Positions 20,455 to 23,615 of a stretch of DNA of 64,000 nt are shown here, piece after piece. This DNA is from Archangium sp. GTDB taxonomy: Bacteria > Myxococcota > Myxococcia > Myxococcales > Myxococcaceae. The stretch lies in assembly GCA_047600485.1 (NCBI GenBank), contig JASGKS010000001.1, positions 6,720,259-6,784,258 of the forward strand. Direction: 5' to 3'. The stretch's first letter is position 1. The number at the start of each line of letters is the position of its first letter. The notes under the pieces are model-generated. The model was not told the DNA's origin, searched no databases, and saw only the letters and a list, made by a program, of their open reading frames with translations. Made by a program: the position numbers and the translations under genes.

Positions 20455-21435
20455 ATGGTGGCCTCGCGTGGCGCGTTGGTTGGCTCGTCGAAGTGCATGC
20501 GCACGCTGAACGAACGAATCGACCGCGCGGCCGAAGGTGATGGTTCCCTGCTCCTGCAAGGCGAGTCGGGCTCGGGCAAGGAAGTCGTCGCCCGCGCAGT
20601 GCACCAGCGCAGCGCTCGCGCTCGCGGCCCGTTCGTGGTCGTCGACTGCGGAGCGCTGACGCCAGGCCTCGTCGCCAGCGAGCTCTTCGGTCACGAGCGC
20701 GGTTCGTTCACCGGCGCCGACGCGCGCTCCCTCGGAGCCTTCGAGCGCGCCGACGGCGGTACGGTGATGCTCGATGAACTCGGCGAATTGCCGCTGGCCC
20801 AGCAGGTGGCGCTGCTCGGTGTGCTCGAGCGCCGCTGCTTTCGGCGCGTGGGCGGCACACAGGACGTGCCCGTCGACGTGCGCGTCATCTCGGCGACCCA
20901 CCGGCCGCTGCGCGAGCTCGTCGGCTCGGGCGCGTTCCGGCTCGACCTCTTCTACCGCGTGGCGGTGCTCACGCTGCAGGTGCCCTCGCTGCGCGAGCGC
21001 CCGCAAGACCTCGAGCCCTTGATGCGCCACTTCCTCTCGGTGCTCGGCGTCGACGATTGCGCGGTCTTGTTTCAGCCCGAGACGCTCGAACGTCTGTGCG
21101 CACACACCTGGCCCGGCAACGTGCGCGAGCTGCGCAATCTCGTCGAGTTCACCGTCACCATGGGTGAGCTGCCGCACCTCGAGGTCGACCCCGCGGACGA
21201 CCGTGCGGTGATGCTCCCCGGCCCGCAGCTGCCGTACGGCGACGCGCGCGCGAACCTGTTGCTGCGCTTCGAGCGTTCCTACCTCGACCGGTTGCTGCGC
21301 GAGGTCGACGGCAACGTGTCAGCCGCCGCGCGCCTCGCGAAGATGAACCGCACGCATCTCATCGACCTGCTGCAGCGTCACGGGTTGAGCCCGCGCCGCG
21401 CGCCCGTGCTGCGGCTCGCGAGCGAAGCGCACTGA
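20455..21435 (+). CDS. Sigma-54-dependent transcriptional activator lacking an N-terminal sensory/receiver domain
   Basis: AAA+ core [24 protein letters not shown](T)[22 protein letters not shown], then a C-terminal Fis-type HTH. Only about 40 aa precede the AAA+ domain. Confidence 0.85.
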
Positions 21436-21438
21436 AGT

Positions 21439-22866
21439 TCAGAAGCGATCGTCGGCCGGCCCGACCGTCGTGACCGGCGGAGTGATGAGCACCTGCTGCT
21501 GGCTGCCCGGAGTGACCGGCAACACCAGCGTGAAGCGGCTGCCCTTGTTCATCTCGCTGGCCACGCGCACCACGCCGCCGTGGCCCTCGACGAAGCTCTT
21601 CACGATGGCGAGCCCGAGGCCCGCGCCGCCGTACTCGCGCGTCGACGACGAATCGACCTGGTAGAAGCTGTGGAAGATCTTGTCGAATTGATCAGCCGGA
21701 ATGCCGACCCCGGAGTCCTCGACGAGAATGCGGTAGCCGGGCGCGTTCAGGTCGGGTTGCTGCTGCACCTCGGTCAACGTCACCGACACCTTGCCGCCCT
21801 TGGGCGTGAACTTCACGGCGTTGGTCAGCAGGTTCACGACCACCTGGCGCAGGCGATCTCGATCTCCGGTCACCATCGCCATGCGCGGCGGCACCTTCGC
21901 CTCGAGAATCACGCCCTTCTTCGCGGTCTGCGGCTTGAGCGAGCTCACCGACGAATTGATCAGCTCCACCGCGTCCATCGGCTCGAAGTTGAGACGCACC
22001 TTGCCCGCTTCGATCTGCGAGATGTCGAGAATGCTGCTGATCAACTTCAGCAGGGTCTCGCCCTTCTCCATGATGGTGCGCACGTAGTCGAGCTGCTCAC
22101 CGTTGAGCGCGCCGGCGAGCCCTTCAGCCAGCATCTCCGAGTAGCCGATGATGCTGGTGAGCGGCGTGCGCAGCTCGTGACTCACCGTCGCGAGGAAGGC
22201 GCTCTTCAGGCGATCGAGTTCCTTCAGCTTGGTGTTCGCGTCTTCGAGGCGCTTGTTCCGTTCTTCGAGCTCGCGGTTGCTGTCGAGCGTCGCCTCGATG
22301 TGCAGCTGCGAGGTGAGGAACATCTTCTGGCCGCCGAACAACATCGTCTGCAGCAGCTGCCCGAAGTGCAGCATCACGCGCGCGATGGTGCCTTCCGGAG
22401 CGCGACGCACCTTCTCGACCAGCGCCTTCGCGTTGCCGATGTCGAAGCCTTCCGAAATCTCGGTCAGCGTGCGTGGCGCGAAGTCGCGCAGGTCTTCGGG
22501 GAAGAACGGGCCGAACACCACGCGGCCGAGCGTGTCGCCTTCCCACATGATGGGCACGATGAGGTACCGCAGCCCCGTGAAGCACGGCACGGTCAACATG
22601 CCCTTGCTCGCGGGAATCAGGTCGGGCTCGAGCACCGGCAACCGCGCGCCGTGCGAGAGCGCGAGCGGCCCGTCTTTCACGCGACCGACCGTCGCCGTGC
22701 AGCGCCGCCGCCCCTCGGGGAACGAGAACACGTAGCCGCAGAAGTCGCCGTTGCCGATCTTGATGTCGGCGATCTTCCCGCCCTTGTCGTCGAACACCTT
22801 GATGCCCACCCGGTACAGCTCGACGAAGCCCTTCACCACCTCGGTGAAGGACTCGGTGTCGAGCAT
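21439..22866 (-). CDS. Cytoplasmic sensor histidine kinase (N-terminal PAS-variant/PocR-like sensor, HisKA, HATPase_c)
   Basis: H-box ATVSHELRTPLTSI. N/G boxes LLTNAVKFT, DSGVGIP, GGAGLGLAIV. No TM segments. The true start is MLDTESF at 22866, and the upstream part of the long ORF is out-of-frame artefact. Confidence 0.85.
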   Translation of the reverse strand: MLDTESFTEVVKGFVELYRVGIKVFDDKGGKIADIKIGNGDFCGYVFSFPEGRRRCTATVGRVKDGPLALSHGARLPVLEPDLIPASKGMLTVPCFTGLRYLIVPIMWEGDTLGRVVFGPFFPEDLRDFAPRTLTEISEGFDIGNAKALVEKVRRAPEGTIARVMLHFGQLLQTMLFGGQKMFLTSQLHIEATLDSNRELEERNKRLEDANTKLKELDRLKSAFLATVSHELRTPLTSIIGYSEMLAEGLAGALNGEQLDYVRTIMEKGETLLKLISSILDISQIEAGKVRLNFEPMDAVELINSSVSSLKPQTAKKGVILEAKVPPRMAMVTGDRDRLRQVVVNLLTNAVKFTPKGGKVSVTLTEVQQQPDLNAPGYRILVEDSGVGIPADQFDKIFHSFYQVDSSSTREYGGAGLGLAIVKSFVEGHGGVVRVASEMNKGSRFTLVLPVTPGSQQQVLITPPVTTVGPADDRF

Positions 22867-22910
22867 CTCGGAGAGCGAGATGCGTCGCTGAAGGACGGAC
22901 TCGCCCTGTC

Positions 22911-23615
22911 TCACGGGCGCGCTCCCTGCCGCGGAGGCAGCACCTTCTCGAGCTCGGTGCCGGTGACGTCGATGTTGGCGAAGACCTGGGTGAGGAATTC
23001 CTTCTCGGTGAGGCCGATGGCCTTGCTCAACGACGCGCGCGCTTCGAGCGAGCGGTAGGCGCTCTGCAGCACCGCGAACAACGTCTCGAGCACGCCGACC
23101 CCGCGAATGGCGATGGCGCCGACCACCGGCTCCTTGCCCTTCTTGCGCGTCTCTTCGATCTCCGCGTCGGTCTTGGTGTCGGGGAGATCTCGCTTGTTGT
23201 ACTGAATGACGATCGGCGTCTGCGCGGGGTCGAGGTTGTTCTCCCGCATGTTCTCCTGCAGGTTCTTCCAGTACGCGTTGTTCTCCTGCGCGGCGGAGCG
23301 GCGGCTGTCGGCGATGAAGGCCACCGCGTCGGCGCCCTGCAACACGATGCGGCGCGTGGCGTTGTGAATCACCTGGCCGGGCACGGTGAACAGCTTCACC
23401 TTCACCTTGAAGCCGTTGGCGGTGCTGAAGAAGACGGGGAGCAGGTCGAAGAACAGCGTGCGGTCGTCGTGCGTTTCGACGGTGAGCAGCCGGCCCCTCA
23501 CCTCGGGGCTGGTCCGCTGATGCACCATCTGCAGGTTGGTCGTCTTCCCCGAGAGACCGGGGCCGTAATAGACGATCTTGACGGTGAGCTCGCGCTGCGC
23601 GTGATTCAGTTGCAC
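22911..23615 (-). CDS. MglA-family Ras-like small GTPase (MglA paralog) with about 40-aa C-terminal extension
   Basis: IVYYGPGLSGKTTNL P-loop, TDRTLFFD (Arg-finger position), YTVPGQV (catalytic Gln), IQYNKRD (G4). Closely parallels M. xanthus MglA. Sits 44 nt upstream of the histidine kinase. Confidence 0.85.
   Translation of the reverse strand: MQLNHAQRELTVKIVYYGPGLSGKTTNLQMVHQRTSPEVRGRLLTVETHDDRTLFFDLLPVFFSTANGFKVKVKLFTVPGQVIHNATRRIVLQGADAVAFIADSRRSAAQENNAYWKNLQENMRENNLDPAQTPIVIQYNKRDLPDTKTDAEIEETRKKGKEPVVGAIAIRGVGVLETLFAVLQSAYRSLEARASLSKAIGLTEKEFLTQVFANIDVTGTELEKVLPPRQGARP

Follow-up and report, generated by a model that had tools for sequence, protein, structure and literature searches.

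A conserved start/stop overlap between the genes of a SofG-type GTPase and a soluble PocR-sensor histidine kinase in Archangium and other Myxococcota

The object of this analysis was a pair of genes encoding an MglA-family small GTPase and a soluble sensor histidine kinase, located within positions 20,455-23,615 of a 64,000-nt stretch of the genome of Archangium sp. (assembly GCA_047600485.1, contig JASGKS010000001.1, 6,720,259-6,784,258 of the forward strand), hereafter referred to as the window. Comparison of gene order and sequences indicates that the genes for GTPases of this type, orthologous to SofG of Myxococcus xanthus, nearly always precede the gene of one particular soluble sensor kinase and overlap it at the stop and start codons, across deep divergence, and that this pairing is conserved far beyond chance. 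Since the window is GC-rich (regional G+C content of 64-69%), genes were selected using third-position GC and profile matches. The elements of the pair, in window coordinates, are as follows.

22911-23615, minus strand: predicted SofG-type GTPase of MglA family Group 1 (234 aa, GTG start), assigned by phmmer, motifs and family alignment.
21439-22914, minus strand: predicted soluble sensor histidine kinase (491 aa), assigned by Pfam matches to PocR, HisKA and HATPase_c.
22911-22914, minus strand: GTGA junction, the overlap of the kinase GTG start with the GTPase TGA stop, from the sequence and a comparison of 63 loci.
22339-22866, minus strand: PocR sensor domain of the kinase (Pfam PF10114, 69 bits against a cut-off of 23.9).
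21442-21453, minus strand: DDRF-COOH tail at the kinase C-terminus, from ortholog comparison.

The GTPase matched MglA of M. xanthus (PDB 6hjh, E = 1.1e-49) and of Thermus thermophilus (PDB 3t12, E = 4.9e-48) over residues 3-186 in a phmmer search of PDB, at 44-45% identity. It contains the P-loop GPGLSGKT at residues 18-25 (within GPGLSGKTTNL), TVPGQ at 77-81 (within TVPGQV, with Gln81) and NKRD at 140-143, as well as an intrinsic Arg52 in switch I that aligns with the MglA arginine. Both the full-length similarity and this combination of P-loop, intrinsic arginine, TxPGQ and NKxD place the protein in Group 1 of the MglA family. The assignment to the MglA family and these three motifs had been proposed in an earlier note on this DNA and are borne out; the switch I motif quoted there, TDRTLFFD, is that of MglA itself, and the window protein reads DDRTLFFD. 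The catalytic arginine and glutamine and the NKxD motif were present in 18 of 18 aligned representatives, the most distant included. Unlike MglA, the protein carries a C-terminal extension of about 40 residues, in which the segment at approximately 190-222 (LTE.EFL..VF...GTELE) is conserved throughout the clade in the family alignment.

As judged from sequence and gene neighbourhood, the window GTPase is an ortholog of M. xanthus SofG, because it shares 77% identity across 222 aa with an "MglA-like protein" of M. xanthus DK1622 (and only about 45% with MglA), the M. xanthus protein is a 239-aa orphan, and its neighbours, a GNAT acetyltransferase gene and two genes for PilT-like ATPases, match MXAN_6704 and MXAN_6705/6706. 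Its closest relative in M. xanthus is SofG, rather than MglA or MXAN_2693, and a GNAT gene lies upstream and a PocR kinase gene downstream. We take SofG (Bulyha et al. 2013, as summarised in PMC4316618 and PMC4085708) to be MXAN_6703, from the concordant length, orphan status and neighbouring genes. The two proteins (239 and 234 aa) share the intrinsic arginine, the glutamine, NKxD and the C-terminal extension. M. xanthus has three MglA-family genes, namely MXAN_1925 (MglA, accompanied by MglB), the orphan MXAN_6703, and MXAN_2693, which lies next to a PATAN gene (PMC4316618 Table S2); MXAN_6704 is a GNAT gene with a developmental phenotype (PMC4048283), and MXAN_6705/6706 are PilT paralogs (PMC13584747). 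SofG has been described as a 239-aa orphan GTPase that is not stimulated by MglB and whose GTPase-activating protein (GAP) is not known (PMC4316618). In M. xanthus, the only species for which this is known, this MglB-independent MglA paralog binds the bactofilin BacP and acts with it to sort the type IV pilus ATPases PilB and PilT to the cell poles (PMC4085708, PMC4316618). Public annotations of M. xanthus SofG differ in length, with versions of 239, 281 and 298 aa (loci L059 and L060 of our comparison, 10001-10720). The N-terminus MQ[LF]N.AQRE is kept clade-wide, distant lineages included, which supports the 239-aa form.

The GTPase and kinase genes lie on the same strand in this order, as had been noted earlier, and the 44-nt gap then read between them resulted from a miscalled start codon: the genes overlap by 4 nt (GTGA). 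The coding-strand sequence across the junction is ...CGC CCG TGA GAC AGG..., and the GTG at 22914 in the kinase frame shares four nucleotides with the TGA stop codon of the GTPase. A kinase-frame start overlapping the GTPase stop was found in 60 of 63 related loci (by 4 nt, RTGA, in 57 and by 1 nt in three). The alternative kinase start, ATG 22866, corresponds to a leucine codon in many orthologs, and it is separated from GTG 22914 by 16 codons that specify a conserved peptide, ESVLQRR[IL]SL. Because of the overlap in 60 of the 63 loci, the frequent replacement of the internal methionine by leucine and the conservation of the upstream peptide, the predicted start of the kinase is GTG 22914, giving a protein of 491 aa encoded at 21439-22914. 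By their sequence, the two genes are arranged in the way that is classical for translational coupling.

When species-representative genomes were scanned with the GTPase, 56 loci were obtained, of which 54 extended far enough to show the downstream gene; a PocR kinase followed the GTPase on the same strand in all 54. Additional loci, both from cultured Myxococcus and from metagenomes, showed the same order. Four divergent lineages of Myxococcota keep the pair with GTPases 52-55% and kinases 43-46% identical to those of the window. A survey from the kinase side covered three loci sampled from the sensor-domain matches, with sensor identities of 25-35%. In each of them the kinase gene directly followed an MglA-family gene coding for 224-243 aa, and in two the overlap was again 4 nt. 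Across the divergent lineages showing the pair, identity ranged from 44% to 57% for the GTPase and from 25% to 46% for the sensor. Lack of conserved adjacency in related genomes had been set beforehand as a possible refutation; adjacency was found in every locus that was long enough and in all three loci reached from the kinase.

The kinase was described earlier as soluble with a PAS-variant or PocR-like sensor, and both properties were confirmed. The PocR match (Pfam PF10114) covers profile positions 2-158 of 162 with 69.0 bits, and a precomputed PocR domain is present in every listed ortholog. There is no hydrophobic segment, the Kyte-Doolittle maximum over 19 residues being 1.4. The protein consists of an N-terminal peptide (residues 5-16), a PocR/PAS-like sensor (about 17-192), a long helix (174-263) leading into the dimerization and histidine phosphotransfer (DHp) domain, a catalytic domain (350-468) and a disordered tail. 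An AlphaFold2 model with a mean predicted local distance difference test (pLDDT) score of 89.7, falling below 50 for residues 473-491, comprises a PAS-like sensor, one long helix, and DHp and catalytic domains resembling the HK853 core, which was also the best match in PDB (38-39% identity, E = 6e-21). The characteristic boxes of class I (HisKA) histidine kinases, H, N, G1, F and G2, were all found in this fold: His246 in SHELRTPL, N361, DSGVGI at 400, FHSFY at 414 and GGAGLGL at 429. The SHELRTPL H-box and the ATP-binding boxes are invariant among 63 kinase orthologs. Since their catalytic residues are conserved, both the GTPase and the kinase seem to be catalytically active and maintained by selection.

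Homologs of the sensor region form a small family: a search of 1.84 billion proteins gave only 204 matching clusters (50% identity clusters, E <= 1e-3). Three cysteines of the sensor (Cys59, Cys72 and Cys111 in the 491-aa numbering) are 98-100% conserved in the 63 orthologs, even where the sensor is only 25% identical, which hints at a metal or redox cofactor more than at a hydrocarbon ligand. Nearly all Myxococcaceae-type orthologs end in D[DE]RF, and each has at least DRF or ERF (loci L001-L050, L055 and L057-L060); this tail is preceded by a variable, disordered proline-rich linker and is missing from distant lineages. The DRF-type tail bears a likeness to tethering peptides such as the C-terminal pentapeptide of chemoreceptors. 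No mention of the M. xanthus kinase gene, MXAN_6702, was found in the open-access papers searched, which did not include the original SofG paper, and nothing relevant was found in the literature linking MglA with PocR or PocR with Myxococcus.

An MglB (Roadblock/LC7) gene typically, though not universally, lies within a few genes of MglA-family genes, and class I kinases may be expected to have an adjacent cognate response regulator. The earlier note reported no cognate response regulator near the pair and named an mglB or response regulator gene just outside the module as a possible refutation; profile searches found neither: the Response_reg and Robl_LC7 profiles had no match in the sizeable genes of the window at about 3.7-36.7 kb (about 13 kb on each side). 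Robl_LC7 was likewise not found in the annotated loci of relatives, where the only receiver genes near the pair are the CheY-like genes of Dif-type clusters. Because there is no adjacent response regulator, the kinase would need a phospho-acceptor encoded elsewhere.

Upstream of the pair, two elements were delineated.

23829-24350, plus strand: GNAT acetyltransferase, divergent from the GTPase gene (Pfam Acetyltransf_1); the likely start is ATG 23829, with the reading frame open from 23769.
23616-23828, no strand: intergenic region between the divergent GTPase and GNAT genes, from the sequence, presumed to hold both promoters.

A scan around the operon, including 23616-23828, gave no match to a consensus sigma-70 promoter, and the single terminator-like hairpin found around the operon lies inside the GTPase gene and is within chance expectation. 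In 52 of the 56 scanned loci, as well as in L057-L060, the GNAT gene adjoins the GTPase gene and diverges from it; it is limited to Myxococcaceae-type loci. The window gene is an ortholog of MXAN_6704, whose transposon mutants do not develop and have fitness profiles clustering with those of pilT and frzS mutants (PMC4048283; bioRxiv 10.64898/2026.08.28.747804). The retention of this gene beside sofG in Myxococcaceae-type loci suggests a functional tie.

On the kinase side, a gene with an AIRS domain directly follows the pair in deep-branching lineages (L041, L047, L055, L061, L062, L066 and L067), its start sometimes overlapping. It is thiL, encoding thiamine-phosphate kinase (NCBIfam TIGR01379, 260-297 bits against a cut-off of 184), and was dropped as a candidate third signalling component; it serves as a synteny marker only. 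The order pair, thiL and then MCP, CheW and CheY genes of a Dif-like cluster is contiguous in L041, L047, L055 and L061, with CheA also present in L047 and L061. The order is also kept in M. xanthus, where four additional genes intervene and the distance from the pair to thiL-difA-D downstream is 4.8 kb (L059, 17030-20720); difA, difC and difE are MXAN_6696, MXAN_6694 and MXAN_6692 (bioRxiv 10.64898/2026.08.28.747804). The M. xanthus locus shares with the window the divergent GNAT gene and the downstream PocR kinase gene; unlike the window, it has pilT paralogs, which occur at this locus in Myxococcus only, and thiL and the dif cluster, which are missing from the window locus.

In the window, the region downstream of the kinase is occupied by other genes.

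17106-21435, no strand: window-specific insertion, judged to lie outside the module (Pfam and locus comparison).
20347 or 20455 to 21435, plus strand: sigma-54 activator without a sensor domain (PF00158, E = 2.9e-60).
19398-20390, plus strand: secreted (signal-peptide) protein with a metallo-beta-lactamase fold (Pfam).
18470-19441, minus strand: LysR (Pfam).
17843-18415, minus strand: open reading frame of 190 aa without assignment (Pfam scan).
17106-17846, minus strand: ODP-type metallo-beta-lactamase (Pfam).
15610-17271: glycogen-synthase-like (glgA-like) gene, whose ortholog directly follows the kinase gene in nine relatives.

In these nine close relatives the kinase gene is followed at once by the ortholog of the glgA-like gene, while about 4.3 kb separates the two in the window. 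No activator homolog was found beside the kinase in the 56 scanned loci (E <= 1e-10) or in the annotated loci L057-L067, and none of the other insertion genes adjoins the kinase in any other locus. The block at 17106-21435 looks like a lineage-specific insertion. Farther out in the window, four large open reading frames of coding type had no Pfam or NCBIfam match (9497-12070, 25026-26180, 26833-29517 and 31396-34086, of 857, 384, 894 and 896 aa); those of 384 and 894 aa are syntenic in relatives and fast-evolving, with 31-80% and 40-61% identity, respectively.

From the conserved overlap, the deep retention of gene order, the intact catalytic residues and the lack of a nearby MglB gene, we infer that SofG and the kinase are coupled. 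The two proteins would be made from one transcript and form one signalling unit in which the kinase binds SofG. The kinase may set the nucleotide state of SofG, as its missing GAP or guanine nucleotide exchange factor (GEF), in response to a cytoplasmic ligand or a redox cue that its cysteine-containing PocR domain perceives; alternatively, SofG-GTP may switch the kinase. The kinase would phosphorylate a response regulator encoded elsewhere, and the likely output would be motility based on type IV pili and exopolysaccharide (S-motility). We assign a probability of roughly 60% to the proposal that the kinase contacts SofG directly, either as a regulator of its nucleotide cycle or as a kinase controlled by SofG-GTP, with the output through an unlinked receiver. 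Several points weigh against it. The original SofG paper, which lies outside the literature covered here, may already have examined the kinase gene, perhaps with a negative result. A connection with the Dif system is one of synteny only and is missing in the window. Several deep lineages also keep a housekeeping gene, thiL, immediately behind the kinase gene and sometimes overlapping it, so that unrelated genes can ride in such a block and conserved order alone is no proof of shared function. Finally, no GTPase-kinase fusions were evident among the sensor-domain homologs in a search of 1.84 billion representatives. The behaviour of thiL and the lack of fusions, together with the ordinary HK853-like class I core of the kinase, speak for the main rival explanation, in which a shared promoter and an ancient gene order ensure co-expression without interaction, and the kinase serves a pathway independent of SofG by way of an unlinked response regulator of its own. 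This explanation deserves to be taken seriously, although we consider it unlikely: the overlap is kept in nearly all loci while the GNAT gene, pilT paralogs, thiL, dif and glgA vary around it, the pairing persists down to 44% identity of the GTPase and 25% of the sensor, and a GTPase gene lies upstream of each kinase sampled from this small family of sensors.

Two other ways of connecting these genes are much less probable than direct contact between SofG and the kinase. The earlier note had pointed to the sigma-54 activator converging on the kinase gene, which might be the local output of a phosphorelay gated by the GTPase. The activator is real, with a genuine sigma-54 AAA+ domain that carries GSFTGA at residues 119-124 in the position of the GAFTGA loop of bacterial enhancer-binding proteins, a weak HTH_8 match and no further domains, and it ends 3 nt short of the kinase stop codon (21439-21441). 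However, it has no receiver domain and at most 43 residues ahead of the AAA+ domain, so that it cannot accept a phosphoryl group from the kinase; having no sensor domain either, it would need regulation in trans. Its position inside the 4.3-kb insertion, at a place where relatives have adjacent kinase and glgA-like genes, also argues against such a role. We judge the activator to be unrelated to the module, because its adjacency is not conserved and a receiver domain is absent; thus, the convergent gene belongs to the window and not to the conserved arrangement, and a role as the output is extremely improbable. The pair might instead be a myxobacterial version of the actinobacterial conservon (CvnA-D), with the GTPase as the output. 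Conservons encode an MglA-family GTPase together with a histidine-kinase-type protein and without an adjacent response regulator, as in the window, and the GTPase was proposed to be part of the signalling output (PMC4316618; PMC12236503). A conservon consists of four genes, including roadblock CvnB and CvnC, whereas the window locus has no roadblock or CvnC-like gene. The conservon kinase is a membrane protein of HAMP type with a C-terminal LPxR, in contrast to the soluble PocR kinase ending in DDRF, and the conservon GTPase belongs to Group 2 (NxFD and DAR, no intrinsic arginine), in contrast to the Group 1 window protein, which has an intrinsic arginine and NKRD and lacks the NxFD and DAR motifs. 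The locus does not qualify as a conservon on these features, and a conservon origin is highly improbable.

Among other known systems, the MglA/MglB module of M. xanthus and T. thermophilus is similar in its GTPase, and differs from the window in that the latter has a histidine-kinase partner gene in place of a nearby MglB/roadblock gene. Group 1 Rup systems resemble the window in having a Ras-like GTPase in a conserved neighbourhood with a kinase or cyclic di-GMP output gene, whose product may regulate or be regulated; unlike it, they contain a GTPase of another family without the catalytic glutamine, their neighbourhoods consist of four genes and include coiled-coil and OmpA-domain proteins, and they are purely predicted (PMC4316618). 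The same publication, the main comparative study of prokaryotic small GTPases, stated that the gene neighbourhoods of MglA proteins of Group 1 "vary widely", and it did not flag the SofG-kinase pair (PMC4316618).

The earlier note knew of no functional description of this arrangement. This holds in part: the GTPase is, by orthology, SofG, with a described role, and the conservon is a precedent for GTPase-kinase operons, while a link between SofG and the kinase is undescribed in the accessible literature. The locus is present in the model organism M. xanthus, and specialists may already know the pair. To our knowledge, only two orphan GTPases of the MglA family have been characterised, SofG being one of them, and the PocR kinase is a concrete candidate for the missing regulator or effector of SofG, a well-supported lead to a possible mechanism. 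If the two proteins are coupled, they would be the second bacterial example of a Ras-like GTPase working with a histidine kinase, after the conservon, and one with a different architecture. A more specific and tentative idea, which we find doubtful in all its parts together, is that SofG and the PocR kinase constitute an ancient MglB-independent switch, where the kinase acts as GAP/GEF or effector, the three cysteines sense a ligand or redox state, and phosphotransfer leads into the Dif/exopolysaccharide pathway. Such a switch would connect the polarity of type IV pili with the control of exopolysaccharide at the molecular level.

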